From assembly GCF_020745735.1 (NCBI RefSeq), contig NW_026869102.1:56367-120366 (forward strand): 64,000 nucleotides of DNA. The letters run 5' to 3'. Under the pieces are notes generated by a model that did not search any database, had not been told where the DNA came from, and saw nothing but the letters and a program-made list of their open reading frames with translations. A program made the position numbers and the translations under genes. Below, piece by piece: positions 3,091 through 58,100 of the stretch. The first letter of the stretch is position 1. Every line of letters starts with the position of its first letter. Source of the stretch: Hemiscyllium ocellatum. Lineage: Eukaryota.

Positions 3091-3099
3091 AGTGGTGGA

Positions 3100-3600: not shown

Positions 3601-3649
3601 AGGAACAACTTTTTCACGCGGAGAAGGTGCAAAGAGCTGCCCGAGGAAG

Positions 3650-25738: not shown

Positions 25739-25930
25739 GAATGCAGCAGTGACTTGGAGAATGAGTTTGAGCTGACCGTGGATCATGAACTGACTCAGAG
25801 ACACAAGGATTACATCCTGAACATTCTCAACACCGGAGACCTGAAGCAGCTGAAGACCCTGCAAAGGGTGGGGGACAAGACTGCCAGGCTCATCATGAGC
25901 TGGAGGGAACACAATGGACCTTTCAGTCAG
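25739..25930 (+). CDS. KIF22: KIF22 coding exon 12 (C-terminal helix-hairpin-helix-like DNA-binding region)
   Basis: Translates to ECSSDLENEFELTVDHELTQRHKDYILNILNTGDLKQLKTLQRVGDKTARLIMSWREHNGPFSQ. Human has [58 protein letters not shown]. Acceptor ttttcag. Donor GTACCT at 25931. Confidence 0.9.
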
Positions 25931-26164
25931 GTACCTCATCTCCCACAGCCCCTCCTATTCAGGAAGGGAATCCCCACAGCCAGCTCCCTAGGGTTGGAGA
26001 GGTGGGTCATAAACTCCCCCAGAGCTAGTCATTGTTCTACAGTCAGCCTGTGTGAGGGGGGGTCGGGGTGGGGGGGGAAGTGCAGGGAGGGACGTAAATC
26101 CAGAGTCTCTGCTTCTGATCACTATCCACGGGTTAGACTGAGAGAATCAACCAAGGGCAACTAA

Positions 26165-34399: not shown

Positions 34400-36060
34400 C
34401 TGTCCTCACGAGGTCAGGGAGCAGGGACAGTGTCTGGGGGAAGAGCCCCCTCCCTCAGACAGGGAGCAGGGACAGTGTCCGGGGTGGGGTTAACCCCCTC
34501 CCTCAGACAGGGAGCAGGGACAGTGTCCGGGGTGGGGTTAACGCCCTCCCTCAGACAGGGAGCAGGGACAGTGTCCGGGGGAAGAGCCCCCTCCCTCAGA
34601 CAGGGAGCAGGGACAGTGTCCGGGGTGGGGTTAACCCCCTCCCTCAGACGGGGAGCAGGGACAGTGTCTGGGGGGGAAGAGCCCCCTCCCTCAGACAGGG
34701 AGCAGGGACAGTGTCCGGGGTGGGGTTAACCCCCTCCCTCAGACAGGGAGCAGGGACAGTGTCTGGGGGGGGGAAGAACCCCTTCCCTCAGACAGGGAGC
34801 AGGGACAGTGTCTGGGGGGGGGGAAGAACCCCTTCCCTCAGACAGGGAGCAGGGACAGTGTCTGGGGGGGGAAGAACCCCTTCCCTCAGACAGGGAGCAG
34901 GGACAGTGTCCGGGGTGGGGTTAACCCCCTCCCTCAGACAGGGAGCAGGGAATGTGTCCAGGGTGGGGTTAACCCCCTCCCTCAGACAGGGAGCAGGGAA
35001 TGTGTCCAGGGTGGGGTTAACCCCCTCCCTCAGACAGGGAGCAGGGACAGTGTCCGGGGTGGGGTTAACCCCCTCCCTCAGACAGGGAGCAGGGACAGTG
35101 TCCGGGGGAAGAGCCCCCTCCCTCAGACAGGGAGCAGGGACTGTGTCCGGGGTGGGGTTAACCCCCTCCTTCAGACAGGGAGCAGGGACTGTGTCCGGGG
35201 TGGGGTTAAAGCCCTCCCTCAGACAGGGAGCAGGGACAGTGTCCGGGGGAAGAGCCCCCTCCCTCAGACAGGGAGCAGGGACAGTGTCCGGGGTGGGGTT
35301 AACCCCCTCCCTCAGACAGGGAGCAGGGACTGTGTCCGGGGGAAGAGCCCCCTCCCTCAGACAGGGAGCAGGGACTGTGTCCGGGGTGGGGTTAACCCCC
35401 TCCCTCAGACAGGGAGCAGGGACGGTGTCTGGGGGAGGAGCCCCCTCCCTCAGACAGGGAGCAGGGAATGTGTCCGGGGTGGGGTTAACCCCCTCCCTCA
35501 GACAGGGAGCAGGGACAGTGTCCGGGGTGGTGTTAACCCCCTCCCTCAGACAGGGAGCAGGGAATGTGTCCGGGGTGGGGTTAACCCCCTCCCTCAGACA
35601 GGGAGCAGGGAATGTGTCCGGGGTGGGGTTAACCCCCTCCCTCAGACAGGGAGCAGGGAATGTGTCCGGGGTGGGGTTAACCCCCTCCCTCAGACAGGGA
35701 GCAGGGAATGTGTCCGGGGTGGGGTTAACCCCCTCCCTCAGACAGGGAGCAGGGAATGTGTCCAGGGTGGGGTTAACCCCCTCCCTCAGACAGGGAGCAG
35801 GGACTGTGTCCGGGGTGGGGTTAACCTCCTCCCTCAGACAGGGAGCAAGGACAGTGTCCGGGGGAGGAGCCCCCTCCCTCAGACAGGGAGCAGGGACTGT
35901 GTCCGGGGTGGGGTTAACCCCCTCCCTCAGACAGGGAGCAAGGACTGTGTCCGGGGTGGGGTTAGCCCCCTCCCTCAGACAGGGAGCAAGGACAGTGTCC
36001 GGGGGAGGAGCCCCCTCCCTCAGACAGGGAGCAGGGACAGTGTCTGGGGTGGGGTGGGGT
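34400..36060. repeat. Minisatellite of about 35 copies with 45- and 48-bp units
   Basis: Units acagggagcagggacagtgtccgggggaagagccccctccctcag (45 bp) and acagggagcaggga(c/a)(a/t)gtgtccggggtggggttaaccccctccctcag (48 bp). The 48-bp type contains the perfect palindrome GGGGTTAACCCC. The ORFs 34288-36087 (+) and 34788-36116 (-) are artefacts of the 3n period. Confidence 0.9.
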
Positions 36061-37190
36061 AAACCCCTTCCCGCTCTCTCTCTGTAACCGACCTGTAGAG
36101 AAATAACGTACGACATCCTGCAGCTCTGGGGGGTCAGTGTCTGTGTACTGCTGCCAGTCAGTGTTCAGTCTGTGTACGGGCGGAGGTGGGGGTGGTGGGG
36201 AGGTTGAGGAGGTGGAGGTGGGGTCTGGACTGGGTGCTCCCAGTCGCCCTGGATCTGCCATCTCCTGCCCACAGTTCAGTCCAGAACGTTGTTCCCCTCG
36301 CGCCCCATCTCCGGCGCCCATTCCCGGCTCAGTGATGAAAGACAGGCCCCACTGGTTGTGGAAGATGGCACCCAGTCCCTGGCCCAGCCTGGGGCCTGAT
36401 TCGTGGTCATCGCTGGCTCCTCTGGTCCCGGTGGGCTCTGCGCTGAGATTCTCCTTCACCTTACTGGCGTAACTGATCCGGGGCAGGATTCGGGCGGTGC
36501 TGCTCCCCACTGGGAATGTGGCTGGGGGTTTGAACAACATCCAGCCGTGGGGCTGCTCTCCCTCTTCCTCCTCCTCCCCAGCGCCCCCGCTCCCCTCTGC
36601 CTCTTCTAGGGACTCAGCCCCTTCGCCACCGTCTCGTGTTCTGGTTAGCCGGTTCCCTGGGGGCCGGGGTTTCCACCTGCGGGTGAATCCATTAACGGCG
36701 CCGTCGCCAGGCTTCCTCTCGAACCTGCGCCCGTAGACCCTCGGCTCACCGCGGGGCTGGAAGTGACCACTGTTCCTCACCCTACCGTCTCCCGCCTGCA
36801 GCCTCCCGGGCGTCGCCTGGCGGTAGTATCCACCCTCAGGACCTGGGAGCCTCCCCAGGGACCGGAAGGAGCTGCCTTCACTTCCCAGAGCCCGGCCCAC
36901 GGGCCGATAGTATCCACTGCCTCCTCCTCCTCCTCCTCCTCCACCACCGCCGTCTAACGCCCGACGGTACTTTGTACCAACGCCATTGGCTGAGCCCAGG
37001 CTCCTGTGTTCATCCACCTCGCGATTGACCGAGTTCTCCATGTCCCTCTTCAGCACCGTATCTGTGACACAGCCCCAGACCTACAGGCAGGGAGACAGAC
37101 AGACAGACAACACCTGGGCATTGACACCAGAGAGACAGGCCACTGAAGGCAGCTACCATCATACTTCCCTTCATCAGGCAGAGCATGGGG
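36060..37190. other. GC-rich, CpG-island-like unique segment bordering the satellite. It includes (GGTGG)n/(CCT)n low-complexity stretches and a CCAAT box. A second copy is present at 2185-2740.
   Basis: High CpG density (cgcg, ccgg, gcgc throughout). ccattggct at about 36983. The 364-aa minus-strand ORF (35962-37056) is not frame-conserved relative to the second copy: indels of 7 and 1 bp. Confidence 0.5.
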
Positions 37191-40100
37191 GAGAGGGGGT
37201 GGGACGTCCTGCTGGTCGGGAATGGGAGGTGCGACGCCCTGCTGGTTGGGTATAGGAGATGGGACTTCCTGCTGGTCGATTATAGGAGATGGGACTTCCT
37301 GCTGGTCGATTATAGGAGATGGGACTTCCTGCTGGTCTATTATAGGAGATGGGACGTCCCGCTGGTCGGGTATAGCAGATGGGACGTCCCGCTGGTCCGG
37401 TATAGCAGATGGGACGTCCCACTGGTCCGGTATAGGAGATGGGGTGTCCCACTGGTCCGGTATAGGAGATGGGACGCCCCGCTGGTCCGGTATAGCAGAT
37501 GGACGTCCCACTGGTCTATTATAGGAGATGGGACGTCCCGGTGGTCAGGTATAGGAGATTGGACGTCCTGCTGGTCGGGTATAGGGGATGGGACGCCCTG
37601 CTGGTCGGGTATAGGAGATGGGACGTCCCGCTGGTCGGGTATAGGGGATGGGACGTCCCGCTGGTCGGGTATAGGGGATGGGACGTCCCGCTGGTCGGGT
37701 ATAGGGGATGGGACGTCCCGCTGGTCTATTATAGGAGATGGGAAGTCCCGCTGGTCGGGTATAGGAGATGGGACGTCCCGCTGGTCGGGTATAGGAGATG
37801 GGACGTCCCGCTGGTCGGGTATAGCAGAAGGGACGTCCCGCTGGTCCGGTATAGCAGAAGGGACGTCCCGCTGGTCCGGTATAGCAGAAGGGACGTCCTG
37901 CTGGTCGGGTATAACAGGCGGGACATCCCGGTGGTCGGGTATAGCAGATGGGACGTCCCGGTGGTCAGGTATAGCAGATGGGACGTCCCGCTGGTCTATT
38001 ATAGAAGATGGGACGTCCTGCTGGTCGGGTATAGCAGGCGGGACGTCCCGCTGGTCGGGTATAGGAGATGGGACGTCCCGGTGGTCGGGTATAGCAGATG
38101 GGACGTCCCGCTGGTCGGGTATAGGAGATGGGACGTCCCGCTGGTCCGGTATAGGAGATGGGACGTCCCGCTGGTCCGGTATAGCAGGAGGGACGTCCCG
38201 CTGGTCGGGTATAGGAGATGGGACGTCCCGCTGGTCGGGTATAGGAGGCGGGACGTCCCGCTGGTCGAGTATAGGAGATGGGACGTCCCACTGGTCGAGT
38301 ATAGGAAATGGGACGTCCCACTGGTCTATTATAGCAGATGGGACGCCCCGCTGGTCTATTATAGGAGGTGGGAACCCCTGCTGGTCGGGTATAGCAGGCG
38401 GGACGTCCCGCCGGTGCAGTATAGAAGATGGGACGCCCCGCTGGTCGGGTATAGGAGATGGGACGTCCCGCTGGTCGGGTATAGGGGATGGGACGTCCCG
38501 CTGGTCCGGTATAGGAGATGGGACGTCCCGCTGGTCCGGTATAGGGGATGGGACGTCCCGCTGGTCGGGTATAGGGGATGGGACGCCCCACTGGTCGGGT
38601 ATAGGAGATGGGACGTCCTGCTGGTCGGGTATAGCAGGCGGGACGTCCCGCTGGTCGGGTATAGGGGATGGGACGCCCCGCTGGTCCGGTATAGGGGATG
38701 GGACGTCCCGCTGGTCGGGTATAGGGGATGGGACGTCCCGCTGGTCCGGTATAGGGGATGGGACGTCCCGCTGGTCGGGTATAGGAGATGGGACGTCCTG
38801 CTGGTCCGGTATAGGGGATGGGACGTCCTGCTGGTCGGGTATAGCCGATGGGACGTCGTGCTGGTCCGGTATAGGAGATGGGACGTCCCGCTGGTCGGGT
38901 ATAGCCGATGGGACGTCGTGCTGGTCCGGTATAGGAGATGGGACGTCCCGCTGGTCGGGTATAGGAGATGGGACGTCCTGCTGGTCCGGTATAGCAGGCG
39001 GGACGCCCCGCTGGTCCGGTATAGGGGATGGGACGTCCCGCTGGTCCGGTATAGGGGATGGGATGTCCTGCTGGTCTATTATAGCAGATGGGACGTCCCG
39101 CTGGTCGGGTATAGCAGGCGGGACGTCCCGCTGGTCGGGTATAGGGGATGGGACGTCCCGCTGGTCGGGTATAGGGGATGGGACGTCCCGCTGGGCCGGT
39201 GTAGGGGATGGGACGTCCCGCTGGTCTATTATAGGAGATTGGACGTCCCGCTGGTCGGGTATAGGGGATGGGACGTCCTGCTGGTCTATTATAGGAGATT
39301 GGACGCTCCGCTGGTCGGGAATAGGAGATGGGACGTCCCACTGGTCTATTATAGGAGATGGGACGTCCCGCTGGTCGGGTATAGCAGATGGGACGTCCCG
39401 CTGGTTGGGTATAAGAGATGGGACGTCCCGCTGGTCTATTATAGGGGATGGGACGTCCTGCTGGTCCGGTATAGGAGATGGGACGTCCTGCTGGTCGGGT
39501 ATAGGGGATGGGACGTCCCGCTGGTCGGGTATAGGGGATGGGACGTCCCGCTGGTCGGGTATAGGGGATGGGATGCCCCGCTGGTCGGGTATAGGGGATG
39601 GGACGTCCTGCTGGTCGGGTATAGGGGATGGGACGTCCCGCTGGTCCGGTATAGGAGATGGGACGTCCTGCTGGTCGGGTATAGGGGATGGGACGTCCCG
39701 CTGGTCCGGTATAGGGGATGGGACGCCCCGCTGGTCCGGTATAGGGGATGGGACGTCCCGCTGGTCGGGTATAGGGGATGGGACGTCCCGCTGGTCGGGT
39801 ATAGGGGATGGGACGCCCCGCTGGTCGGGTATAGGAGATGGGCCGTCCTGCTGGTCGGGTATAGCAGGCGGGACGTCCCGCTGGTCGGGTATAGGAGATG
39901 GGCCGTCCTGCTGGTCGGGTATAGCAGGCGGGACGTCCCGCTGGTCGGGTATAGGGGATGGGACGCCCCGCTGGTCCGGTATAGGGGATGGGACGTCCTG
40001 CTGGTCTATTATAGCAGATGGGACGCCGCGCTGGTCGGGTATAGCAGGCGGGACGCCCCGCTGGTCGGGTATAGCAGGCGGGACGCCCCGCTGGTCGGGT

Positions 40101-43100
40101 ATAGGGGATGGGACGTCCTGCTGGTCTATTATAGCAGATGGGACGTCCCGCTGGTCCGGTATAGGGGATGGGACGTCCCGCTGGTCTATTATAGCAGATG
40201 GGACGCCCCGCTGGTCGGGTATAGGGGATGGGACGTCCCGCTGGTCGGGTATAGGGGATGGGACGTCCTGCTGGTCTATTATAGGAGATGGGACGTCCCG
40301 CTGGTCGGGTATAGGAGATGGGACGTCCCGCTGGTCGGGTATAGGGGATGGGACGTCCTACTGGTCTATTATAGGAGATGGGACGTCCCGCTGGTCCGGT
40401 ATAGGAGATGGGACGTCCTGCTGGTCCGGTATAGGAGATGGGACGTCCTGCTGGTCCGGTATAGGGGATGGGACGTGCCGCTGGTCGGGTATAGGGGATG
40501 GGACGTCCTGCTGGTCGGGTATAGGAGATGGGACGTCCTGCTGGTCTATTATAGGAGATGGGACGTCCCGCTGGTCGGGTATAGGGGATGGGACGTCCCG
40601 CTGGTCCGGTATAGGGGATGGGACGTCCTGCTGGTCTATTATAGGAGATGGGACGTCCCGCTGGTCGGGTATAGGAGATGGGACGTCCCGCTGGTCGGGT
40701 ATAGGAGATGGGACGTCCCGCTGGTCGGGTATAGGGGATGGGACGTCCTGCTGGTCTATTATAGGAGATGGGACGTCCCGCTGGTCGGGTATAAGAGATG
40801 GGATGTCCTGCTGGTCTATTATAGGAGATGGGACGTCCCGCTGGTCCGGTATAGGAGATGGGACGTCCTGCTGGTCCGATATAGGAGATGGGACGTCCCG
40901 CTGGTCGGGTATAAGAGATGGGACGTCCCGCTGGTCTATTATAGGAGATGGGACGTCCCGCTGGTCCGGTATAGGAGATGGGACGTCCCGCTGGTCGGGT
41001 ATAGGGGATGGGACGTCTCGCTGGTCAGGTATAGGGGATGGGATGTCCCGCTGGTCAGGTATAGCAGGCGGGACGTCCCGCTGGTCGGGTATAAGAGATG
41101 GGACGTCCCGCTGGTCCAGTATAGGAGATGGGACGTCCTGCTGGTCCGGTATAGGGGATGGGACGTCCCGCTGGTCCGGTATAGGAGACGGGACGTCCCG
41201 CTGGTCCGGTATAGGGGATGGGACGTCCCGCTGGTCCGGTATAGGGGATGGGACGTCCTGCTGGTCGGGTATAGCAGGCGGGACGTCCCGCTGGTCGGGT
41301 ATAGCAGGCGGGACGTCCCGCTGGTCGGGTATAGGGGATGGGACGTCCCGCTGGTCGGGTATAGGAGATGGGACGTCCTGCTGGTCCGGTATAGCAGGCG
41401 GGACGCCCCGCTGGTCCGGTATAGGGGATGGGACGTCCCGCTGGTCCGGTATAGGGGATGGGATGTCCTGCTGGTCTATTATAGCAGATGGGACGTCCCG
41501 CTGGTCGGGTATAGCAGGCGGGACGTCCCGCTGGTCGGGTATAGGGGATGGGACGTCCCGCTGGTCGGGTATAGGAGATGGGACGTCCCGCTGGTCGGGT
41601 ATAGGGGATGGGACGTCCCGCTGGGCCGGTGTAGGGGATGGGACGTCCTGCTGGTCTATTATAGGAGATTGGACGTCCCGCTGGTCGGGTATAGGGGATG
41701 GGACGTCCTGCTGGTCTATTATAGGAGATTGGACGCTCCGCTGGTCGGGTATAGGAGATGGGACGTCCCACTGGTCTATTATAGGAGATGGGACGTCCCG
41801 CTGGTCGGGTATAGCAGATGGGACGTCCCGCTGGTTGGGTATAAGAGATGGGACGTCCCGCTGGTCTATTATAGGGGATGGGACGTCCGGCTGGTCCGGT
41901 ATAGGAGATGGGACGTCCTGCTGGTCGGGTATAGGGGATGGGACGTCCCGCTGGTCGGGTATAGGGGATGGGACGTCCCGCTGGTCGGGTATAGGGGATG
42001 GGATGCCCCGCTGGTCGGGTATAGGGGATGGGACGTCCTGCTGGTCGGGTATAGGGGATGGGACGTCCCGCTGGTCCGGTATAGGAGATGGGACGTCCTG
42101 CTGGTCGGGTATAGGGGATGGGACGTCCCGCTGGTCCGGTATAGGGGATGGGACGCCCCGCTGGTCCGGTATAGGGGATGGGACGTCCCGCTGGTCGGGT
42201 ATAGGGGATGGGACGTCCCGCTGGTCGGGTATAGGGGATGGGACGCCCCGCTGGTCGGGTATAGGAGATGGGCCGTCCTGCTGGTCGGGTATAGCAGGCG
42301 GGACGTCCCGCTGGTCGGGTATAGGAGATGGGCCGTCCTGCTGGTCGGGTATAGGGGATGGGACGCCCCGCTGGTCCGGTATAGGGGATGGGACGTCCTG
42401 CTGGTCTATTATAGCAGATGGGACGCCGCGCTGGTCGGGTATAGCAGGCGGGACGCCCCGCTGGTCGGGTATAGCAGGCGGGACGCCCCGCTGGTCGGGT
42501 ATAGGGGATGGGACGTCCTGCTGGTCTATTATAGCAGATGGGACGTCCCGCTGGTCCGGTATAGGGGATGGGACGTCCCGCTGGTCTATTATAGCAGATG
42601 GGACGTCCCGCTGGTCGGGTATAGGGGATGGGACGTCCCGCTGGTCGGGTATAGGGGATGGGACGTCCTGCTGGTCTATTATAGGAGATGGGACGTCCCG
42701 CTGGTCGGGTATAGGAGATGGGACGTCCCGCTGGTCGGGTATAGGGGATGGGACGTCCTACTGGTCTATTATAGGAGATGGGACGTCCCGCTGGTCCGGT
42801 ATAGGAGATGGGACGTCCTGCTGGTCCGGTATAGGAGATGGGACGTCCTGCTGGTCCGGTATAGGGGATGGGACGTGCCGCTGGTCGGGTATAGGGGATG
42901 GGACGTCCTGCTGGTCGGGTAAAGGAGATGGGACGTCCTGCTGGTCTATTATAGGAGATGGGACGTCCCGCTGGTCGGGTATAGGGGATGGGACGTCCCG
43001 CTGGTCCGGTATAGGGGATGGGACGTCCTGCTGGTCTATTATAGGAGATGGGACGTCCCGCTGGTCGGGTATAGGAGATGGGACGTCCCGCTGGTCGGGT

Positions 43101-46100
43101 ATAGGGGATGGGACGTCCTGCTGGTCTATTATAGGAGATGGGACGTCCCGCTGGTCGGGTATAAGAGATGGGACGTCCTGCTGGTCTATTATAGGAGATG
43201 GGACGTCCCGCTGGTCCGGTATAGGAGATGGGACGTCCTGCTGGTCCGATATAGGAGATGGGACGTCCCGCTGGTCGGGTATAAGAGATGGGACGTCCTG
43301 CTGGTCTATTATAGGAGATGGGACGTCCCGCTGGTCCGGTATAGGAGATGGGACGTCCTGCTGGTCCGGTATAGGGGATGGGACGCCCCGCTGGTCGGGT
43401 ATAGGAGATGGGACGTCCTGCTGGTCCGGTATAGGAGATGGGACGTCCCGCTGGTCGGGTATAGGGGATGGGACGTCTCGCTGGTCAGGTATAGGGGATG
43501 GGATGTCCCGCTGGTCAGGTATAGCAGGCGGGACGTCCCGCTGGTCGGGTATAAGAGATGGGACGTCCCGCTGGTCCAGTATAGGAGATGGGACGTCCTG
43601 CTGGTCCGGTATAGGGGATGGGACGTCCCGCTGGTCCGGTATAGGAGACGGAACGTCCCGCTGGTCCGGTATAGGGGATGGGACGTCCCGCTGGTCCGGT
43701 ATAGGGGATGGGACGTCCTGCTGGTCGGGTATAGGAGATGGGACGTCCCGCTGGTCGGGTATAGCAGGCGGGACGTCCCGCTGGTCGGGTATAGGGGATG
43801 GGACGTCCCGCTGGTCGGGTATAGGGGATGGGAACCCCTACTGGTCGGGTATAGGGGATGGGACGTCCCGCTGGTCAGGTATAGGGGATGGGACGTCCCG
43901 CTAGTCAGGTATAGCAGGCGGGACGTCCCGCTGGTCGGGTATAGCAGGCGGGACGTCCCGCTGGTCGGGTATAGCAGGCGGGACGTCCCGCTGGTCGGGT
44001 ATAGGAGATGGGACGTCCTGCTGGTCGGTTATAGGAGATGGGACGTCCCGCTGGTCCGGTATAGGGGATGGGACGTCTCGCTGGTCGGGTATAGCAGGCG
44101 GGACGTCCCGCTGGTCGGGTATAGGAGATGGGACGTCCCGCTGGTCCGGTATAGGGGATGGGACGCCTGCTGGTCCGGTATAGGAGATGGGACGTCCCGC
44201 TGGTCCGGTATAGCAGGCGGGACGTCCCGCTGGTCGGGTATAGGGGATGGGACGTCCTGCTGGTCGGGTATAGGAGATGGGAACCCCTACTGGTCGGGTA
44301 TAGCGGATGGGACGTCCCGCTGGTCGGGTATAGGGGATGGGACGTCCCGCTGGTCGGGTATAGCAGGCGGGACGTCCCGCTGGTCGGGTATAAGAGATGG
44401 GACGTCCTGCTGGTCGGGTATAGGAGATGGGACGTCCTGCTGGTCCGGTATAGGAGATGGGACGTCCCGCTGGTCGGGTATAGCAGGCGGGACGTCCCGC
44501 TGGTCGGGTATAGCAGGCGGGACGTCCCGCTGGTCGGGTATAGCAGGCGGGACGTCCCGCTGGTCGGGTATAGGAGATGGAACGCCCCGCTGGTCGGGTA
44601 TAGGAGATGGAACGCCCCGCTGGTCGGGTATAGAAAGATGGGACGCCCCGCTGGTCGGGTATAGGAGATGGGACGTCCGGCTGGTCGGGTATAGCAGATG
44701 GGACGCCCCGCTGGTCCGGTATAGCAGATGGGACGTCCCGCTGGTCTATTATAGCAGATGGGACGTCCCGCTGGTCCGGTATAAGAGATGGGACGTCCCG
44801 CTGGTCTATTATAGGAGATGGGACATCCCGCTGGTCTATTATAGGAGATGGGACGTCCCGCTGGTCGGGTATAGGGGATGGGACGTCCTGCTGGTCTATT
44901 ATAGCAGATGGGAGGCCCCGCTGGTCGGGTATAGGGGATGGGACGCCCCGCTGGTCCGGTATAGGGGATGGGACGTCCCGCTGGTCCGGTATAGGGGATG
45001 GGACGTCCTGCTGGTCTATTATAGGAGATGGGACGTCCCGCTGGTCGGGTATAGGAGATGGGACGTCCCGCTGGTCCGGTATAGGGGATGGGACGTCCTG
45101 CTGGTCTATTATAGAAGATGGGACGTCCCGCTGGTCGGGTATAAGAGATGGGACGTCCTGCTGGTCTATTATAGGAGATGGGACGTCCCGCTGGTCCGGT
45201 ATAGGAGATGGGACGTCCTGCTGGTCCGGTATAGGAGATGGGACGTCCCGCTGGTCGGGTATAGGAGATGGGATGTCCCGCTGGTCGGGTATAGGGGATG
45301 GGACGTCCCGCTGGTCCGGTATAGGGGATGGGACGTCCCGCTGGTCCAGTATAGGGGATGGGATGTCCCGCTGGTCGGGTATAGCAGGCGGGACGTCCCG
45401 CTGGTCGGGTATAGGAGATGGGACGTCCCGCTGGTCGGGTATAGGGGATGGGACGTCCTACTGGTCTATCATAGGAGATGGGACGTCCCGCTGGTCCGGT
45501 ATAGGAGATGGGACGTCCCGCTGGTCCGGTATAGGAGATGGGACGTCCTGCTGGTCCGGTATAGGGGATGGGACGTCCCGCTGGTCGGGTATAGGGGATG
45601 GGATGCCCCGCTGGTCGGGTATAGGGGATGGGACGTCCTGCTGGTCGGGTAAAGGAGATGGGACGTCCTGCTGGTCTATTATAGGAGATGGGACGTCCCG
45701 CTGGTCGGGTATAGGGGATGGGACGTCCCGCTGGTCCGGTATAGGGGATGGGACGTCCTGCTGGTCTATTATAGGAGATGGGACGTCCCGCTGGTCGGGT
45801 ATAGGAGATGGGACGTCCCGCTGGTCGGGTATAGGGGATGGGACGTCCTGCTGGTCTATTATAGGAGATGGGACGTCCCGCTGGTCGGGTATAAGAGATG
45901 GGACGTCCTGCTGGTCTATTATAGGAGATGGGACGTCCCGCTGGTCCGGTATAGGAGATGGGACGTCCTGCTGGTCCGATATAGGAGATGGGACGTCCCG
46001 CTGGTCGGGTATAAGAGATGGGACGTCCTGCTGGTCTATTATAGGAGATGGGACGTCCCGCTGGTCCGGTATAGGAGATGGGACGTCCCGCTGGTCCGGT

Positions 46101-49100
46101 ATAGGGGATGGGACGCCCCGCTGGTCGGGTATAGGAGATGGGACGTCCTGCTGGTCCGGTATAGGAGATGGGACGTCCCGCTGGTCGGGTATAGGGGATG
46201 GGACGTCTCGCTGGTCAGGTATAGGGGATGGGATGTCCCGCTGGTCAGGTATAGCAGGCGGGACGTCCCGCTGGTCGGGTATAAGAGATGGGACGTCCCG
46301 CTGGTCGGGTATAAGAGATGGGACGTCCTGCTGGTCCAGTATAGGAGATGGGACGTCCTGCTGGTCCGGTATAGGGGATGGGACGTCCCGCTGGTCCGGT
46401 ATAGGAGACGGAACGTCCCGCTGGTCCGGTATAGGGGATGGGACGTCCCGCTGGTCCGGTATAGGGGATGGGACGTCCCGCTGGTCGGGTATAGGGGATG
46501 GGAACCCCTACTGGTCGGGTATAGGGGATGGGACGTCCCGCTGGTCAGGTATAGGGGATGGGACGTCCCGCTAGTCAGGTATAGCAGGCGGGACGTCCCG
46601 CTGGTCGGGTATAGCAGGCGGGACGTCCCGCTGGTCCGGTATAGGGGATGGGACGTCCCGCTGGTCCGGTATAGGGGATGGGAACCCCTACTGGTCGGGT
46701 ATAGGGGATGGGACGTCCCGCTGGTCAGGTATAGGGGATGGGACGTCCCGCTGGTCGGGTATAGGGGATGGGAACCCCTACTGGTCGGGTATAGGGGATG
46801 GGACGTCCCGCTGGTCAGGTATAGGGGATGGGACGTCCCGCTAGTCAGGTATAGCAGGCGGGACGTCCCGCTGGTCGGGTATAGCAGGCGGGACGTCCCG
46901 CTGGTCCGGTATAGGGGATGGGACGTCCCGCTGGTCGGGTATAGGGGATGGGACGTCCCGCTGGTCGGGTATAGGGGATGGGACGCCCCGCTGGTCCGGT
47001 ATAGGGGATGGGACGTCCCGCTGGTCCGGTATAGGGGATGGGACGTCCTGCTGGTCTATTATAGGAGATGGGACGTCCCGCTGGTCGGGTATAGGAGATG
47101 GGACGTCCCGCTGGTCCGGTATAGGGGATGGGACGTCCTGCTGGTCTATTATAGAAGATGGGACGTCCCGCTGGTCGGGTATAAGAGATGGGACGTCCTG
47201 CTGGTCTATTATAGGAGATGGGACGTCCCGCTGGTCCGGTATAGGAGATGGGACGTCCTGCTGGTCCGGTATAGGAGATGGGACGTCCCGCTGGTCGGGT
47301 ATAGGAGATGGGATGTCCCGCTGGTCGGGTATAGGGGATGGGACGTCCCGCTGGTCCGGTATAGGGGATGGGACGTCCCGCTGGTCCAGTATAGGGGATG
47401 GGATGTCCCGCTGGTCGGGTATAGCAGGCGGGACGTCCCGCTGGTCGGGTATAGGAGATGGGACGTCCCGCTGGTCGGGTATAGGGGATGGGACGTCCTA
47501 CTGGTCTATCATAGGAGATGGGACGTCCCGCTGGTCCGGTATAGGAGATGGGACGTCCCGCTGGTCCGGTATAGGAGATGGGACGTCCTGCTGGTCCGGT
47601 ATAGGGGATGGGACGTCCCGCTGGTCGGGTATAGGGGATGGGATGCCCCGCTGGTCGGGTATAGGGGATGGGACGTCCTGCTGGTCGGGTAAAGGAGATG
47701 GGACGTCCTGCTGGTCTATTATAGGAGATGGGACGTCCCGCTGGTCGGGTATAGGGGATGGGACGTCCCGCTGGTCCGGTATAGGGGATGGGACGTCCTG
47801 CTGGTCTATTATAGGAGATGGGACGTCCCGCTGGTCGGGTATAGGAGATGGGACGTCCCGCTGGTCGGGTATAGGGGATGGGACGTCCTGCTGGTCTATT
47901 ATAGGAGATGGGACGTCCCGCTGGTCGGGTATAAGAGATGGGACGTCCTGCTGGTCTATTATAGGAGATGGGACGTCCCGCTGGTCCGGTATAGGAGATG
48001 GGACGTCCTGCTGGTCCGATATAGGAGATGGGACGTCCCGCTGGTCGGGTATAAGAGATGGGACGTCCTGCTGGTCTATTATAGGAGATGGGACGTCCCG
48101 CTGGTCCGGTATAGGAGATGGGACGTCCCGCTGGTCCGGTATAGGGGATGGGACGCCCCGCTGGTCGGGTATAGGAGATGGGACGTCCTGCTGGTCCGGT
48201 ATAGGAGATGGGACGTCCCGCTGGTCGGGTATAGGGGATGGGACGTCTCGCTGGTCAGGTATAGGGGATGGGATGTCCCGCTGGTCAGGTATAGCAGGCG
48301 GGACGTCCCGCTGGTCGGGTATAAGAGATGGGACGTCCCGCTGGTCGGGTATAAGAGATGGGACGTCCTGCTGGTCCAGTATAGGAGATGGGACGTCCTG
48401 CTGGTCCGGTATAGGGGATGGGACGTCCCGCTGGTCCGGTATAGGAGACGGAACGTCCCGCTGGTCCGGTATAGGGGATGGGACGTCCCGCTGGTCCGGT
48501 ATAGGGGATGGGACGTCCCGCTGGTCGGGTATAGGGGATGGGAACCCCTACTGGTCGGGTATAGGGGATGGGACGTCCCGCTGGTCAGGTATAGGGGATG
48601 GGACGTCCCGCTAGTCAGGTATAGCAGGCGGGACGTCCCGCTGGTCGGGTATAGCAGGCGGGACGTCCCGCTGGTCGGGTATAGGGGATGGGAACCCCTA
48701 CTGGTCGGGTATAGGGGATGGGACGTCCCGCTGGTCAGGTATAGGGGATGGGACGTCCCGCTGGTCGGGTATAGGGGATGGGAACCCCTACTGGTCGGGT
48801 ATAGGGGATGGGACGTCCCGCTGGTCAGGTATAGGGGATGGGACGTCCCGCTAGTCAGGTATAGCAGGCGGGACGTCCCGCTGGTCGGGTATAGCAGGCG
48901 GGACGTCCCGCTGGTCCGGTATAGGGGATGGGACGTCCCGCTGGTCGGGTATAGGGGATGGGAACCCCTACTGGTCGGGTATAGGGGATGGGACGTCCCG
49001 CTGGTCAGGTATAGGGGATGGGACGTCCCGCTAGTCAGGTATAGCAGGCGGGACGTCCCGCTGGTCGGGTATAGCAGGCGGGACGTCCCGCTGGTCGGGT

Positions 49101-52100
49101 ATAGCAGGCGGGACGTCCCGCTGGTCGGGTATAGCAGGCGGGACGTCCCGCTGGTCGGGTATAGCAGGCGGGACGTCCCGCTGGTCGGGTATAGGAGATG
49201 GGACGTCCTGCTGGTCGGGTATAGGAGATGGGACGTCTCGCTGGTCGGGTATAGCAGGCGGGACGTCCCGCTGGTCGGGTATAGGAGATGGGACGTCCCG
49301 CTGGTCCGGTATAGGGGATGGGACGTCCTGCTGGTCGGGTATAGGAGATGGGACGTCCTGCTGGTCCGGTATAGGAGATGGGACGTCCCGCTGGTCGGGT
49401 ATAGCAGGCGGGACGTCCCGCTGGTCGGGTATAGCAGGCGGGACGTCCCGCTGGTCGGGTATAGGAGATGGAACGCCCCGCTGGTCGGGTATAGAAAGAT
49501 GGGACGCCCCGCTGGTCGGGTATAGGAGATGGGACGTCCGGCTGGTCGGGTATAGCAGATGGGACGCCCCGCTGGTCCGGTATAGCAGATGGGACGTCCC
49601 GCTGGTCTATTATAGCAGATGGGACGTCCCGCTGGTCCGGTATAAGAGATGGGACGTCCCGCTGGTCTATTATAGGAGATGGGACATCCCGCTGGTCGGG
49701 TATAGGAGATGGGACGTCCCGCTGGTCCGGTATAGGGGATGGGACGTCCTGCTGGTCTATTATAGCAGATGGGAGGCCCCGCTGGTCGGGTATAGGGGAT
49801 GGGACGCCCCGCTGGTCCGGTATAGGGGATGGGACGTCCCGCTGGTCCGGTATAGGGGATGGGACGTCCTGCTGGTCTATTATAGGAGATGGGACGTCCC
49901 GCTGGTCGGGTATAGGAGATGGGACGTCCCGCTGGTCCGGTATAGGGGATGGGACGTCCTGCTGGTCTATTATCGAAGATGGGACGTCCCGCTGGTCCGG
50001 TATAGGAGATGGGACGTCCTGCTGGTCCGGTATAGGAGATGGGACGTCCCGCTGGTCGAGTATAGGGGATGGGACGTCCCGCTGGTCCGGTATAGGGGAT
50101 GGGACGTCCCGCTGGTCCGGTATAGGGGATGGGACGTCCCGCTGGTCCGGTATAGGGGATGGGATGTCCCGCTGGTCCGGTATAGCAGGCGGGACGTCCC
50201 GCTGGTCGGGTATAGGGGATGGGACGTCCCGCTGGTCGGGTATAGCAGGCGGGACGTCCCGCTGGTCGGGTATAGCAGGCGGGACGTCCCGCTGGTCGGG
50301 TATAGGAGATGGAACGTCCCGCTGGTCTATTATAGTAGATGGGATGTCCTGCTGGTCGGGAAAAGGGGATGGGACGTCCCGCTGGTCGGGTATAGGGGAT
50401 GGGACGTCCCGCTGGTCGGGTACAGGAGATGGGTCGTCCCGCTGGTCTATTATAGCAGATGGGACGTCCCGCTGGTCTGGTATAGGGGATGGGACGTCCT
50501 GCTGGTCTATTATAGCAGATGGGACGCCCCGCTGGTCGGGTATAGGGGATGGGACGTCCCGCTGGTCGGGTATAGGGGATGGGACGTCCCGCTGGTCTAT
50601 TATAGCAGATGGGACGTCCCGCTGGTCCGGTATAGGGGATGGGACGTCCTGCTGGTCTATTATAGCGGATGGGACGCCCCGCTGGTCGGGTATAGGGAAT
50701 GGGACGTCCCGCTGGTCCGGTATAGGGGATGGGACGTCCCGCTGGTCGGGTATAGCAGATGGGACGTCCCGCTGGTCGGGTATAAGAGATGGGACGTCCT
50801 GCTGGTCTATTATAGGAGATGGGACGTCCCGCTGGTCGGGTATAGGGGATGGGACGTCCCGCTGGTCGGGTATAGCAGGCGGGACGTCCCGCTGGATGGG
50901 TATAGCAGGCGGGACGTCCCGCTGGTCGGGTATAGCAGGCGGGACGTCCCGCTGGTCGGGTATAGGGGATGGGACGTCCCGGTGGTCGGGTATAGCAGAT
51001 GGGACGTCCTGCTGGTCGGGTGTAGGAGATGGGACGTCCCGCTGGTCTGGTATAGGAGATGGGACATCCCGCTGGTCGGGTATAGCAGGCGGGACGTCCC
51101 GCTGGTCCGGTATAGGGGATGGGACGCCCCGGTGGTCGGGTATAGGAGATGGGAACCCCTACTGGTCGGGTATAGCAGATGGGACGTCCCGCTGGTCGGG
51201 TATAGCAGACGGGACGTCCCGCTGGTCGGGTATAGGAGATGGAACGCCCCGCTGGTCGGGTATAGCAGGCGGGACGTCCCGCTGGTCGGGTATAGGAGAT
51301 GGAACGCCCCGCTGGTCGGGTATAGCGGATGGGACGTCCCGCTGGTCGGGTATAGGGGATGGGACGTCCCGCTGGTCGGGTATAGGGGATGGGACGTCCC
51401 GCTGGTCTATTATAGGAGATGGGACATCCCGCTGGTCTATTATAGGAGATGGGACGTCCCGCTGGTCGGGTATAGGAGATGGGACGTCCCGCTGGTCCGG
51501 TATAGGGGATGGGACGTCCTGCTGGTCGGGTATAAGAGATGGGACGTCCTGCTGGTCTATTATAGGAGATGGGACGTCCCGCTGGTCCGGTATAGGAGAT
51601 GGGAAGTCCTGCTGGTCCGGTATAGGAGATAGAACGTCCCGCTGGTCGGGTATAGGAGATGGGATGCCCCGCTGGTCGGGTATAGCGGATGGGACGTCCC
51701 GCTGGTCGGGTATAGGGGATGGGACGTCCCGCTGGTCTATTATAGGAGATGGGACATCCCGCTGGTCGGGTATAGGAGATGGGACGTCCCGCTGGTCGGG
51801 TATAGGAGATGGGACGTCCCGCTGGTCCGGTATAGGGGATGGGACGTCCCGCTGGTCTATTATAGCAGATGGGACGTCCCGCTGGTCCGGTATAGGGGAT
51901 GGGACGTCCTGCTGGTCTATTATAGCAGATGGGACGCCCCGCTGGTCGGGTATAGGAGATGGGACGTCCTGCTGGTCCGGTATAGGAGATGGAACGTCCC
52001 GCTGGTCGGGTATAGGAGATGGGACGCCCCGCTGGTCGGGTATAGGAGATGGGACGTCCCGCTGGTCGGGTATAGGAGATGGGACGTCCCGCTGGTCCGG

Positions 52101-55100
52101 TATAGGGGATGGGACGTCCCGCTGGTCTATTATAGCAGATGGGAGGCCCCGCTGGTCGGGTATAGGGGATGGGACGCCCCGCTGGTCCGGTATAGGGGAT
52201 GGGACGTCCCGCTGGTCCGGTATAGGGGATGGGACGTCCTGCTGGTCTATTATAGGAGATGGGACGTCCCTCTGGTCCGGTATAGGGGATGGGACGTCCT
52301 GCTGGTCCATTATAGGAGATGGGACGTCCCGCTGGTCGGGTATAAGAGATGGGACGTCCTGCTGGTCTATTATAGGAGATGGGACGTCCCGCTGGTCCGG
52401 TATAGGAGATGGGACGTCCTGCTGGTCCGGTATAGGAGATGGGACGTCCCGCTGGTCCGGTATAGGAGATGGGATGCCCCGCTGGTCGGGTATAGGAGAT
52501 GGGACGTCCCGCTGGTCCGGTATAGGGGATGGGACGTCCCGCTGGTCGGGTATAGGGGATGGGACGTCCCGCTGGTCCGGTATAGCAGGCGGGACGTCCC
52601 GCTGGTCGGGTATAGGGGATGGGACGTCCCGCTGGTCGGGTATAGGAGATGGGAACCCCTACTGGTCGGGTATAGCAGATGGGACGTCCCGCTGGTCGGG
52701 TAGAGGGGATGGGACGTCCCGCTGGTCGGGTATAGCAGGCGGGACGTCCCGCTGGTCGGGTATAGCAGGCGGGACGTCCCGCTGGTCGGGTATAAGAGAT
52801 GGGACGTCCTGCTGGTCCGGTATAGGAGATGGGACGTCCTGCTGGTCCGGTATAGGGGATGGGACGTCCCGCTGGTCGGGTATAGCAGGCGGGACGTCCC
52901 GCTGGTCGGGTATAGGAGATGGAACGCCCCGCTGGTCGGGTATAGCAGATGGGACGTCCCGCTGGTCGGGTATAGGAGATGGGACGTCCCGCTGGTCTAT
53001 TATAGTAGATGGGACGTCCTGCTGGTCGGGAAAAGGGGATGGGACGTCCCGCTGGCCGGGTATAGGGGATGGGACGTCCCGCTGGTCCAGTATAGGAGAT
53101 GGGACGTACCGCTGGTCCGGTATAGGGGATGGGACGTCCCGCTGGTCCGGTATAGGGGATGGGACGTCCCGCTGGTCCGGTATAGGGGATGGGACGTCCC
53201 GCTGGTCTATTATAGCAGATGGGACGTCCCGCTGGTCCGGTATAGGGGATGGGACGTCCCGCTGGTCTATTATAGCAGATGGGACGCCCCGCTGGTCGGG
53301 TATAGGGGATGGGACGTCCCGCTGGTCCGGTATAGGGGATGGGACGTCCCGCTGGTCTATTATAGCAGATGGGACGTCCCGCTGGTCCGGTATAGGGGAT
53401 GGGACGTCCTGCTGGTCTATTATAGCGGATGGGACGCCCCGCTGGTCGGGTATCGGGGATGGAACGTCCCGCTGGTCCGGTATAGGGGATGGGACGTCCC
53501 GCTGGTCGGGTATAGCAGATGGGACGTCCCGCTGGTCGGGTATAGGAGATGGGACATCCCACTGGTCGGGTATAGCAGGCGGGACGTCCCGCTGGTCCGG
53601 TATAGGGGATGGGACGCCCCGGTGGTCGGGTATAGCAGATGGGACGTCCTGCTGGTCGGGTGTAGGAGATGGGACGTCCCGCTGGTCTGGTATAGGAGAT
53701 GGGACGTCCCGCTGGTCGGGTATAGCAGGCGGGACGTCCCGCTGGTCCGGTATAGGGGATGGGACGCCCTGGTGGTCGGGTATAGGAGATGGGAACCCCT
53801 ACTGGTCGGGTATAGCAGATGGGACGTCCCGCTGATCGGGTATAGCAGGCGGGACGTCCCGCTGGTCGGGTATAGGAGATGGAACGCCCCGCTGGTCGGG
53901 TATAGCAGGCGGGACGTCCCGCTGGTCGGGTATAGGAGATGGAACGCCCCGCTGGTCGGGTATAGGGGATGGGACGTCCCGCTGGTCGGGTATAGGGGAT
54001 GGGACGTCCCGCTGGTCTATTATAGGAGATGGGACGTCCCGCTGGTCGGGTATAGGAGATGGGACGTCCCGCTGGTCGGGTATAGGAGATGGGACGTCCT
54101 GCTGGTCCGGTATAGGAGATGGAACGTCCCGCTGGTCGGGTATAGGAGATGGGATGCCCCGCTGGTCGGGTATAGGAGATGGGACGTCCTGCTGGTCCGG
54201 TATAGGGGGCGGGACGTCCCGCTGGTCGGGTATAGCAGGCGGGACGTCCCGCTGGTCGGGTATAGCAGGCGGGACGTCCCGCTGGTCGGGTATAGGGGAT
54301 GGGACGTCCCGCTGGTCGGGTATAGGAGATGGGACATCCCGCTGGTCGGGTATAGCAGGCGGGACGTCCCGCTGGTCCGGTATAGGGGATGGGACGCCCC
54401 GGTGGTCGGGTATAGGGGATGGGAACCCCTACTGGTCGGGTATAGCAGATGGGACGTCCCGCTGGTCGGGTATAGCAGGCGGGACGTCCCGCTGGTCGGG
54501 TATAGCAGGCGGGACGTCCCGCTGGTCGGGTATAGGAGATGGAACGCCCCGCTGGTCGGGTATAGCAGATGGGACGTCCCGCTGGTCGGGTATTGGGGAT
54601 GGGACGTCCTGCTGGTCGGGTATAGGGGATGGGACGTCCTGCTGGTCGGGTATAAGAGATGGGACGTCCTGCTGGTCTATTATAGGAGATGGGACGTCCT
54701 GCTGGTCCGGTATAGGGGATGGGACGTCCTGCTGGTCGGGTATAAGAGATGGGACGTCCTGCTGGTCTATTATAGGAGATGGGACGTCCCGCTGGTCCGG
54801 TATAGGAGATGGGACGTCCTGCTGGTCCGGTATAGGAGATGGAACGTCCCGCTGGTCGGGTATAGGAGATGGGATGCCCCGCTGGTCGGGTATAGCAGAT
54901 GGGACGTCCCGCTGGTCGGGTACAGGGGATGGGACGTCCCGCTGGTCGGGTATAGGGGATGGGACGTCCCGCTGGTCTATTATAGGAGATGGGACATCCC
55001 GCTGGTCGGGTATAGGAGATGGGACGTCCCGCTGGTCGGGTATAGGAGATGGGACGTCCCGCTGGTCCGGTATAGGGGATGGGACGTCCCGCTGGTCTAT

Positions 55101-58100
55101 TATAGCAGATGGGACGTCCCGCTGGTCCGGTATAGGGGATGGGACGTCCTGCTGGTCTATTATAGCAGATGGGACGCCCCGCTGGTCGGGTATAGGGGAT
55201 GGGACGTCCCGCTGGTCCGGTATAGGGGATGGGACTTCCTGCTGGTCGGGTATAAGAGATGGGACGTCCTGCTGGTCTATTATAGGAGATGGGACGTCCC
55301 GCTGGTCCGGTATAGGAGATGGGACGTCCTGCTGGTCCGGTATAGGAGATGGAACGTCCCGCTGGTCGGGTATAGGAGATGGGATGCCCCGCTGGTCGGG
55401 TATAGGAGATGGGACGTCCCGCTGGTCGGGTATAGGAGATGGGACGTCCCGCTGGTCCGGTATAGGGGATGGGACGTCCCGCTGGTCTATTATAGCAGAT
55501 GGGAGGCCCCGCTGGTCGGGTATAGGGGATGGGACGCCCCGCTGGTCCGGTATAGGGGATGGGACGTCCCGCTGGTCCGGTATAGGGGATGGGACGTCCT
55601 GCTGGTCTATTATAGGAGATGGGACGTCCCTCTGGTCCGGTATAGGGGATGGGACGTCCTGCTGGTCCATTATAGGAGATGGGACGTCCCGCTGGTCGGG
55701 TATAAGAGATGGGACGCCCTGCTGGTCTATTATAGGAGATGGGACGTCCCGCTGGTCCGGTATAGGAGATGGGACGTCCTGCTGGTCCGGTATAGGAGAT
55801 GGGACGTCCCGCTGGTCCGGTATAGGAGATGGGATGCCCCGCTGGTCGGGTATAGGAGATGGGACGTCCCGCTGGTCCGGTATAGGGGATGGGACGTCCC
55901 GCTGGTCGGGTATAGGGGATGGGACGTCCCGCTGGTCCGGTATAGCAGGCGGGACGTCCCGCTGGTCGGGTATAGGGGATGGGACGTCCCGCTGGTCGGG
56001 TATAGGAGATGGGAACCCCTACTGGTCGGGTATAGCAGATGGGACGTCCCGCTGGTCGGGTAGAGGGGATGGGACGTCCCGCTGGTCGGGTATAGCAGGC
56101 GGGACGTCCCGCTGGTCGGGTATAGCAGGCGGGACGTCCCGCTGGTCGGGTATAAGAGATGGGACGTCCTGCTGGTCCGGTATAGGAGATGGGACGTCCT
56201 GCTGGTCCGGTATAGGGGATGGGACGTCCCGCTGGTCGGGTATAGCAGGCGGGACGTCCCGCTGGTCGGGTATAGGAGATGGAACGCCCCGCTGGTCGGG
56301 TATAGGAGATGGGACGTCCCGCTGGTCGGGTATAGGAGATGGGACGTCCCGCTGGTCTATTATAAGAGATGGGACGTCCTGCTGGTCGGGAAAAGGGGAT
56401 GGGACGTCCCGCTGGTCGGGTATAGGGGATGGGACGTCCCGCTGGTCCGGTATAGGAGATGGGACGTACCGCTGGTCCGGTATAGGGGATGGGACGTCCC
56501 GCTGGTCCGGTATAGGGGATGGGACGTCCCGCTGGTCTATTATAGCAGATGGGACGTCCCGCTGGTCCGGTATAGGGGATGGGACGTCCCGCTGGTCTAT
56601 TATAGCAGATGGGACGCCCCGCTGGTCGGGTATAGGGGATGGGACGTCCCGCTGGTCCGGTATAGGGGATGGGACGTCCCGCTGGTCTATTATAGCAGAT
56701 GGGACGTCCCGCTGGTCCGGTATAGGGGATGGGACGTCCTGCTGGTCTATTATAGCGGATGGGACGCCCCGCTGGTCGGGTATAGGGGATGGAACGTCCC
56801 GCTGGTCCGGTATAGGGGATGGGACGTCCCGCTGGTCCGGTATAGCAGATGGGACGTCCTGCTGGTCGGGTATAGGAGATGGGACGTCCCGCTGGTCTGG
56901 TATAGGAGATGGGACATCCCGCTGGTCGGGTATAGCAGGCGGGACGTCCCGCTGGTCCGGTATAGGGGATGGGACGCCCCGGTGGTCGGGTATAGCAGAT
57001 GGGACGTCCTGCTGGTCGGGTGTAGGAGATGGGACGTCCCGCTGGTCTGGTATAGGAGATGGGACATCCCGCTGGTCGGGTATAGCAGGCGGGACGTCCC
57101 GCTGGTCCGGTATAGGGGATGGGACGCCCTGGTGGTCGGGTATAGGAGATGGGAACCCATACTGGTCGGGTATAGCAGATGGGACGTCCCGCTGGTCGGG
57201 TATAGCAGGCGGGACGTCCCGCTGGTCGGGTATAGGAGATGGAACGCCCCGCTGGTCGGGTATAGCAGGCGGGACGTCCCGCTGGTCGGGTATAGGAGAT
57301 GGAACGCCCCGCTGGTCGGGTATAGGGGATGGGACGTCCCGCTGGTCGGGTATAGGGGATGGGACGTCCCGCTGGTCTATTATAGGAGATGGGACGTCCC
57401 GCTGGTCGGGTATAGGAGATGGGACGTCCCGCTGGTCGGGTATAGGAGATGGGACGTCCTGCTGGTCCGGTATAGGAGATGGAACGTCCTGCTGGTCGGG
57501 TATAGGAGATGGGATGCCCCGCTGGTCGGGTATAGGAGATGGGACGTCCTGCTGGTCGGGTATAGGAGATGGGACGTCCTGCTGGTCCGGTATAGGGGGC
57601 GGGACGTCCCGCTGGTCGGGTATAGCAGGCGGGACGTCCCGCTGGTCGGGTATAGCAGGCGGGACGTCCCGCTGGTCGGGTATAGGGGATGGGACGTCCC
57701 GCTGGTCGGGTATAGGAGATGGGACATCCCGCTGGTCGGGTATAGCAGGCGGGACGTCCCGCTGGTCCGGTATAGGGGATGGGACGCCCCGGTGGTCGGG
57801 TATAGGAGATGGGAACCCCTACTGGTCGGGTATAGCAGATGGGACGTCCCGCTGGTCGGGTATAGCAGGCGGGACGTCCCGCTGGTCGGGTATAGGAGAT
57901 GGAACGCCCCGCTGGTCGGGTATAGCAGATGGGACGTCCCGCTGGTCGGGTATAGGGGATGGGACGTCCTGCTGGTCGGGTATAGGGGATGGGACGTCCC
58001 GCTGGTCTATTATAGGAGATGGGACATCCCGCTGGTCGGGTATAGGGGATGGGACGTCCCGCTGGTCCGGTATAGGGGATGGGACGTCCTGCTGGTCGGG

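Follow-up and report, generated by a model that had tools for sequence, protein, structure and literature searches.

How does a tandem repeat with a unit of 30 bp, situated beside the start of a gene, come to contain copies that are kilobases long and nearly identical to each other? This question is raised by a stretch of 64,000 nucleotides from the epaulette shark Hemiscyllium ocellatum (RefSeq assembly GCF_020745735.1, contig NW_026869102.1, positions 56,367 to 120,366 of the forward strand), referred to below as the window, in which a plus-strand array of 30-bp monomers extends from position 37200 to the end at 64000, next to a NUFIP2-like gene. A preliminary description of the window had claimed that the array contains higher-order repeats with multi-kilobase, near-identical copies, had attributed them to recent unequal exchange and had likened them to centromeric alpha satellite. 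Under the working definition of higher-order repeats, namely that the identity between blocks is far above that between monomers (PMC8122249), the first of these claims is borne out. The blocks, arranged head to tail, are 98-99.95% identical to one another, whereas the monomers are ~87% identical. The array has a local, low-copy, variable-length higher-order organisation and belongs to the genic, minisatellite type. In all likelihood, it is non-coding and has been enlarged and homogenised by homologous exchange between copies that were out of register as blocks, the register of the monomers being maintained.

Monomers of the array

The consensus of the repeat is TGGGACGTCCCGCTGGTCGGGTATAGGAGA, for which Tandem Repeats Finder (TRF) reports 893.4 copies of the 30-bp period with 87% matches. 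As the array reaches the end of the window, its length is at least 26.8 kb. Segmentation by dynamic programming divides the array into 893 monomers, of which 888 are 30 bp long, three are 29 bp and two are 31 bp. These five monomers cause the raw shift-identity to decay when it is computed over the whole array, and the explicit segmentation into monomers was used in its place. All pattern matches to the monomer are found on the plus strand, giving the array a single orientation. The array is G+C-rich and has a pronounced strand asymmetry (GC content of ~0.62 and GC skew of ~+0.31).

Typing of the monomers yields 166 distinct sequences among the 893. The mean pairwise identity of the monomers is 87%, and neighbours are as different from each other as distant pairs are, at 3.3-4.5 of the 30 positions. 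Nine positions are the most variable (1, 8, 11, 19-21, 27, 28 and 30), and CpG-to-TpG changes are found among the substitutions. The segments GGGA, CTGGTC and TATA are nearly invariant, and every monomer contains the perfect 10-bp palindrome GGGACGTCCC. The palindrome has a methylatable ACGT core and matches the pattern GGGRNNYYCC. Every monomer also carries GCTGGTCG/C, which is one base away from the chi octamer GCTGGTGG. No RNA family is detected in the window by Rfam at the gathering thresholds, and an exact-pattern scan of metagenome contigs gave no match to the monomer.

Block structure

A monomer-level self dot-plot of the array displays clear off-diagonal lines at multi-kilobase spacing. 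It contains 39 runs of at least six identical monomers, the longest of which comprises 56. When the monomers are permuted, either globally or within neighbourhoods of 30 monomers, the longest run is 4-5 and none reaches six, and even an over-fitted first-order Markov simulation produces identical runs of no more than 16 monomers, compared to 56 in the real array. A chance origin of the block matches is excluded. Pairs of blocks were obtained by aligning the array locally with itself, monomer by monomer and with gaps allowed. At least one duplicate block covers 78.5% of the monomers. For 45% of the 10-monomer windows, there is a partner that is at least 99% identical, whereas permuted arrays top out at 96%.

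The copies are separated by insertions or deletions of whole monomers. The 39 exact repeats that are at least 200 bp long have offsets of 0 modulo 30, apart from four in which an intervening monomer of 29 or 31 bp shifts the offset by one base. As the offsets are multiples of 30, the junctions between the copies must lie in the register of the monomers. The length of the repeated unit, on the other hand, is not fixed. Even when the array is shifted by the most favourable offsets, of 68, 112 or 80 monomers, just 7-9% of the monomers are identical, so that local units are present but one array-wide period is absent. The units are 42, 68, 80-82, 89-92, 107-113 and 150 monomers long, with two to five copies per family. 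Words of four monomers shared between parts of the array form off-diagonal lines within 38.4-49 kb and within 50.4-64 kb, with almost none between these two regions. The array therefore consists of two unrelated domains and has no single period. It is a patchwork of local duplications with monomer-scale insertions and deletions, unlike the regular, many-copy alpha satellite.

The proximal edge of the array, a zone of 58 monomers on the plus strand (37200-38938), lies outside all duplicate blocks and has no high-identity partner. The best partner of each 10-monomer window in this zone is 0.88-0.94 identical, as it is in permuted arrays (mean 0.927). The first 30 monomers diverge most from the consensus, with 3.3 differences compared to about 2.4. 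The edge zone is poorly homogenised.

The proximal domain

The units of the proximal domain (38.9-49 kb) are 68-92 monomers long. The segments 45273-46574 and 47313-48614, previously described as identical, have no mismatches over their 1302 nt, and the exact match continues for 356 nt on the left and 62 nt on the right, resulting in 1720 bp of identity between 44917-46636 and 46957-48676. The offset is 2040 bp, or 68 x 30. In the gapped alignment, 44939-46948 is paired with 46979-48958 over 66 monomers that are 99.95% identical; the offset is 68 monomers at first and 67 thereafter. The two copies differ by one substitution and one merged monomer (46619-46678 versus 48659-48688). Nearly the whole 68-monomer (2040-bp) unit is copied head to tail, as copy 1 at 44917-46956 is abutted by copy 2 at 46957-48958, both on the plus strand. 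A 34-monomer sub-block of this unit is also present at 42689-43708 (99.4%) and at 40289-41008 (98.8%). Copies of the sub-block are thus located at ~40289, 42689, 45389 and 47429, with spacings of 80, 90 and 68 monomers.

Another head-to-tail duplicate on the plus strand, with a unit of 80-82 monomers (~2.4 kb), occupies 38939-43828. Its two copies, 38939-41368 and 41339-43828, align over 79 monomer pairs at 99.37% identity, with 67 of the pairs identical and with an offset of 80 to 82 monomers. The diagnostic variant ctgggccggtgtaggggat, correctly placed by the preliminary description at 39191 and 41621, 81 monomers apart, sits in this duplicate pair. In both the 68-monomer and the 80-82-monomer pairs, the second copy begins where the first one ends.

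The distal domain

The distal domain (50.4-63.3 kb) is punctuated by the variant cgggaaaaggggat, which is found at 50357, 53027, 56387, 60887 and 63286. The spacings of 89, 112 and 150 monomers given for this marker earlier are correct, although the coordinates were 4 nt too high and the fourth spacing, of 80 monomers, was missing. The marker bounds four consecutive plus-strand units of variable length between 50357 and 63285: unit 1 at 50357-53026 (89 monomers), unit 2 at 53027-56386 (112 monomers), unit 3 at 56387-60886 (150 monomers) and unit 4 at 60887-63285 (80 monomers). In pairwise monomer-level alignments, these units are 98.0-99.4% identical across 67-108 aligned monomers. The alignment of units 2 and 3 includes 108 of 112 monomers at 99.44% identity, 91 of them identical. 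A longer match pairs 51480-56249 with 54690-59639 (155 monomer pairs, 99.46%, offset of 107 to 113 monomers). As these two ranges overlap, about three tandem copies of the unit must be present.

Unit 3 contains a nested plus-strand duplication of 42 monomers (1260 bp) at 58620-60809. Its two parts, 58620-59549 and 59880-60809, align over 31 pairs at 99.78% and include a 537-bp exact match at an offset of 1260. It is mainly this nested duplication that makes the 150-monomer unit longer than the others.

Probable growth and homogenisation of the array

By combining these observations, we infer a process in which the array would have grown through exchange between misaligned copies. The events could be unequal crossing-over between sister chromatids or in meiosis, or else the repair of breaks or the restart of replication on a misaligned template. 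Each exchange would duplicate or delete a block of tens to ~110 monomers. Successive exchanges, and after them slips on the smaller scale of 1 to 42 monomers, would give rise to two families of units of variable length. Within a unit, the monomers would retain their old divergence of ~13%, whereas the copies of the unit would be 98-99.95% identical. The edge of the array could rarely join in such exchanges and would have stayed unhomogenised. Junctions in the register of the monomers fit this process, as they are expected of exchange between misaligned homologous monomers and not of random end-joining. The attribution to unequal exchange in the preliminary description agrees with the arrangement of the copies: both their head-to-tail order and their monomer register are predicted by such exchange.

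The process is a familiar one. In the model of Smith (1976), unequal crossover in DNA under no constraint generates tandem periodicity (PMC8122249). This model predicts nested periodicities, local homogeneity and turnover, and the shark array has repeats nested at offsets of 9, 42, 68, 80 and 112 monomers. Smith's proposal is a model and not a family of sequences, and the exchange events considered here are reconstructed rather than observed. The adjoining 43-bp minisatellite also holds an exact duplicate of 451 bp at an offset of 463, and the process is therefore general in the region and not peculiar to the 30-bp array. Slippage driven by hairpins was considered separately and is not supported: three monomers folded as single-stranded DNA are no better than shuffled sequences (z = -1.5).

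The age of the duplications can be estimated approximately. In H. ocellatum, direct measurement has given a mutation rate of 7e-10 per bp per generation, with pi at ~0.002 (PMC10587355). The 68-monomer pair, with one substitution in ~2 kb, has d of ~0.0005, which is below pi. This duplicate may be younger than the typical allelic coalescence and is possibly polymorphic. The other pairs, with d of ~0.005-0.02, would be several-fold older than the typical allelic coalescence. Thus, the term "recent", which had been applied to the copies in general, is appropriate for the 68-monomer duplicate only.

Several points weigh against growth by exchange or narrow what can be said about it. The differences between young copies cluster at the sites that are variable across the whole array (positions 19, 28, 11 and 8); short-patch conversion or recurrent mutation probably contributes beside simple duplication. 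The sequence by itself cannot separate unequal crossing-over from the routes based on replication or break repair. As the array continues beyond the window, the organisation described here is that of the part between 37200 and 64000. Furthermore, the reference assembly was made from 50x PacBio continuous long reads (CLR) with TrioCanu, followed by Arrow polishing and further polishing rounds (PMC10587355), and this procedure could create some perfect identity and even copy number.

The first and last of these points lead to two other explanations. Gene conversion between units that already existed, instead of duplication by unequal exchange, might have made the blocks nearly identical. Conversion is suggested by the position of the young-copy differences, at sites already variable across the array, and by some high-identity copies that are not adjacent (offsets of 159, 225, 231, 267 and 343 monomers). 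However, several of the block matches turn out to be the first and third copies of one tandem series, and most of the non-adjacent ones are of this kind (112 + 113 = 225; 91 + 68 = 159). The blocks that are longest and most alike adjoin each other head to tail, the end of one copy being the start of the next, and tracts of 2-4.7 kb would be longer than is usual for conversion. It is unlikely that conversion is the source of the blocks.

An artefact of the assembly, either a false tandem duplication or copies made uniform by polishing with mis-mapped reads, seems just as improbable. It is true that the locus is on a minor record of 430,011 bp and not on a chromosome, and that over-polishing would yield 1720 bp of perfect identity. 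The identities of the duplicates are graded, however, from 99.95% down to ~98%, and are accompanied by insertions and deletions of whole monomers. The window contains no N gaps, the nearby 43-bp array behaves likewise, and the block periods of 1.3-4.5 kb are far below the typical length of a CLR read.

Genic setting

The gene next to the array is represented by a minus-strand open reading frame at 36100-37080, the main coding exon, which is 100% identical to the "FMR1-interacting protein NUFIP2-like" of H. ocellatum (XP_060679286.1 and XP_060679285.1). Its ATG is at 37041, and the first monomer of the array is found 159 bp upstream of it. Both RefSeq isoforms begin at the sequence MENSV, downstream of the array. 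A motif resembling a 3' splice site, ctgtag after a polypyrimidine tract, is located at ~37081-37110 and is conserved in Chiloscyllium and Stegostoma. As this motif is acceptor-like, the array is probably situated in an intron of the 5' untranslated region or directly upstream of the NUFIP2-like gene. The flank also carries exons of a KIF22-like kinesin gene on the plus strand. Stegostoma, Scyliorhinus torazame, Heterodontus and Cetorhinus all retain the arrangement in which the NUFIP2-like gene faces the kinesin gene. The pair of S. torazame is at 8.86 Mb of a 147-Mb chromosome and has a different repeat upstream.

Arrays at the same position in other sharks

The contig of Chiloscyllium plagiosum that contains the orthologous exon opens with a run of eight 30-bp units, which read CGGGTACAGCAGGTGGGACGTCCTGCTGGT in the orientation of the window and begin at the same nucleotide of the flank as the Hemiscyllium array. 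In C. punctatum, a variant of ~31 bp is present at the same boundary. Both Chiloscyllium contigs end inside the array. Judging from these orthologous arrays, the array is older than the split of Hemiscyllium and Chiloscyllium, and the variants of the monomer typical of each species indicate that it evolved in concert.

In Stegostoma, S. torazame and Heterodontus, the 30-bp monomer is missing from the 10 kb of sequence upstream of the homologous gene. Other long arrays, tandem or of low complexity, are located upstream of the NUFIP2-like coding exon in these sharks and in Cetorhinus: a GA-rich array in Stegostoma (locus L001, 7-5777), a G/GT-rich array with units of 22-29 bp in S. torazame (L004, 6-9900), CCTC and AGAC arrays in Heterodontus (L005, 88-9918) and an 83-bp unit in Cetorhinus (L006, 2951-5257), whose contig ends 5.4 kb upstream. 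In Heptranchias, there is no array in the 1.4 kb upstream of the gene, where the contig ends.

An array that is conserved in position and unrelated in sequence could be a selected feature, such as a boundary, a spacer or a regulator in the first intron, in which case the block duplications would reflect selection for length and not neutral turnover. We consider this very unlikely. The shark loci are rich in minisatellites in general, and the shared position of the arrays may be a coincidence.

Comparison with centromeric alpha satellite

Alpha satellite resembles the shark array in that divergent monomers (~70% identical in alpha satellite, ~87% here) are organised into head-to-tail units that are 97-100% identical, and in both the edge of the array is less homogenised. 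The accepted cause of the higher-order repeats of alpha satellite is unequal exchange with concerted evolution (PMC8122249). This likeness raises the possibility that the shark array is a centromeric or pericentromeric satellite. The identity between blocks is far above that between monomers, the array is open-ended with a length of at least 26.8 kb, the scaffold is unplaced, and the palindrome present in each monomer could be a putative protein-binding box.

However, just 159 bp separate the array from the ATG of an annotated gene, and the interval is gene-bearing; the homologous NUFIP2-like/kinesin pair of S. torazame is, as mentioned above, at 8.86 Mb of a 147-Mb chromosome. Apart from one solo monomer, the repeat has no other copy in the 37 kb of flank. 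A monomer of 30 bp is far from the size of a nucleosome, whereas that of alpha satellite is ~171 bp, and the shark units are very long when counted in monomers (42-150). Unlike those of alpha satellite, they are of variable length, without a fixed period, with two to five copies per family, and are divided into two domains within 27 kb of genic DNA. The context argues against a centromeric role, for which the probability is even smaller than for selection on length. The analogy with a centromere, made at the outset, finds no support here. A link to the satellite-rich Y chromosome of sharks was also considered and rejected, as the two papers on shark sex chromosomes mention neither KIF22 nor NUFIP2 and the satellite units of the Y are different.

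A hypothetical coding role of the array

The weakest explanation is that the array encodes a domain of decapeptide repeats (for example GDGTSRWSGI), the identity of the blocks resulting from selection or from recent exon-like duplication. The number 30 is divisible by three, open reading frames of at least 2239 amino acids pass through the array, and the variable positions with the greatest weight (19, 28 and 1) are synonymous third codon positions in the GDGTSRWSGI frame. Nevertheless, such a role is scarcely conceivable, as five of the six consensus frames are free of stops by base composition alone, the nine variable positions divide 3/3/3 by codon phase, common variants change residues in the GDGTSRWSGI frame (R to C, S to P, G to A and D to G), the 29- and 31-bp monomers break the frame, every frame contains at least 28 stops, and both RefSeq isoforms start downstream of the array. 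A protein search with five open-frame translations of the satellite found no homologue.

A solo monomer and other repeats in the window

The solo monomer, tgggacatcctgctggtcgggtataacagg, is located on the plus strand at 2739-2768, where a partial paralogous copy of the flank ends. The segment 2212-2763 resembles 36664-37223, that is, the 5' coding exon of the NUFIP2-like gene, the flank and one monomer, and is 91-97% identical to it. The homology stops after exactly one monomer. The copy is part of a chimeric partial duplicate at 1577-2770, in which 1577 to ~2195 resembles the KIF22-like exon region from 12873 to ~14470 (96%) and is fused to 2212-2763, the ~22 kb between the two parts in the main copy being lost.

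It could be imagined that the solo monomer is the progenitor of the array before its expansion. This was rejected, as the copy is nearer to the H. ocellatum flank (91-97%) than the Chiloscyllium flanks are (81-85%). A progenitor is also disfavoured as less parsimonious, for Chiloscyllium already has the array. The paralogous copy is more likely a later segmental duplicate with its breakpoint one monomer into the array.

A CpG-rich stretch with CCAAT and inverted CCAAT (ATTGG) motifs at 3700-4000, some 1 kb past the solo monomer, may be a candidate promoter of the paralogous copy. A conserved counterpart of this stretch was not found in the other shark loci, and a comparison of the region beyond the solo monomer (2770-4400) with those loci, aimed at a conserved promoter, gave transposon-like matches only.

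The 43-bp minisatellite mentioned above consists of 49.7 copies at 26244-28353 and has a three-unit (128-bp) periodicity. It is found just downstream of an exon at 25691-26164, whose translation looks like that of the helix-hairpin-helix exon of KIF22, for which it is a candidate. A 48-bp minisatellite at 34415-36055 is inside the last intron of the NUFIP2-like gene, and the splicing of isoform X1 skips it. In C. plagiosum, the annotated model of the NUFIP2-like gene reads into a repeat homologous to the 48-bp minisatellite, which is probably an annotation error.

In the kinesin gene of S. torazame (L004, 21754-22402) and of Heterodontus francisci (L005, 25909-27366), there is a minisatellite with a unit of 63-66 bp that contains CACTGGACAGTGATCAGGAGCAGGAACCCTGGCTGATTTCCCC. 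This unit was not found in the window; it may be an old conserved array or derived from a transposon. The window further contains fragments of long interspersed nuclear element (LINE) reverse transcriptase, which form a 573-bp tandem triplication at 4419-6262 (97-98% identical) and an inverted repeat of 878 nt, 5639-6516 and 10559-11436, with 98% complementarity and 4 kb between the arms.

The array as a minisatellite

The array can also be compared to the GC-rich minisatellites of vertebrates, or variable number tandem repeats. Like them, it has a unit in the range of 10-100 bp, is rich in G+C with strand asymmetry, occupies a genic site and contains interspersed variant repeats with block duplications. 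The adjoining 43- and 48-bp arrays are of the same minisatellite type. Minisatellites range from 0.5 to 30 kb (PMC8122249), and the at least 26.8 kb of the shark array within the window places it at the top end of this range.

The array is a new example of a well-known kind of structure and leaves the knowledge of satellite evolution unchanged. It also marks a locus beside the start of a gene that is probably polymorphic in length and a region that deserves a check of its assembly. It is a clean example of how an array with a short unit grows, by duplication of blocks in monomer register and then by smaller slips, the edge being left unhomogenised and the two domains being independent of each other. 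The mutation rate of H. ocellatum is among the lowest measured in vertebrates, and the history of duplication in this array therefore stays legible.

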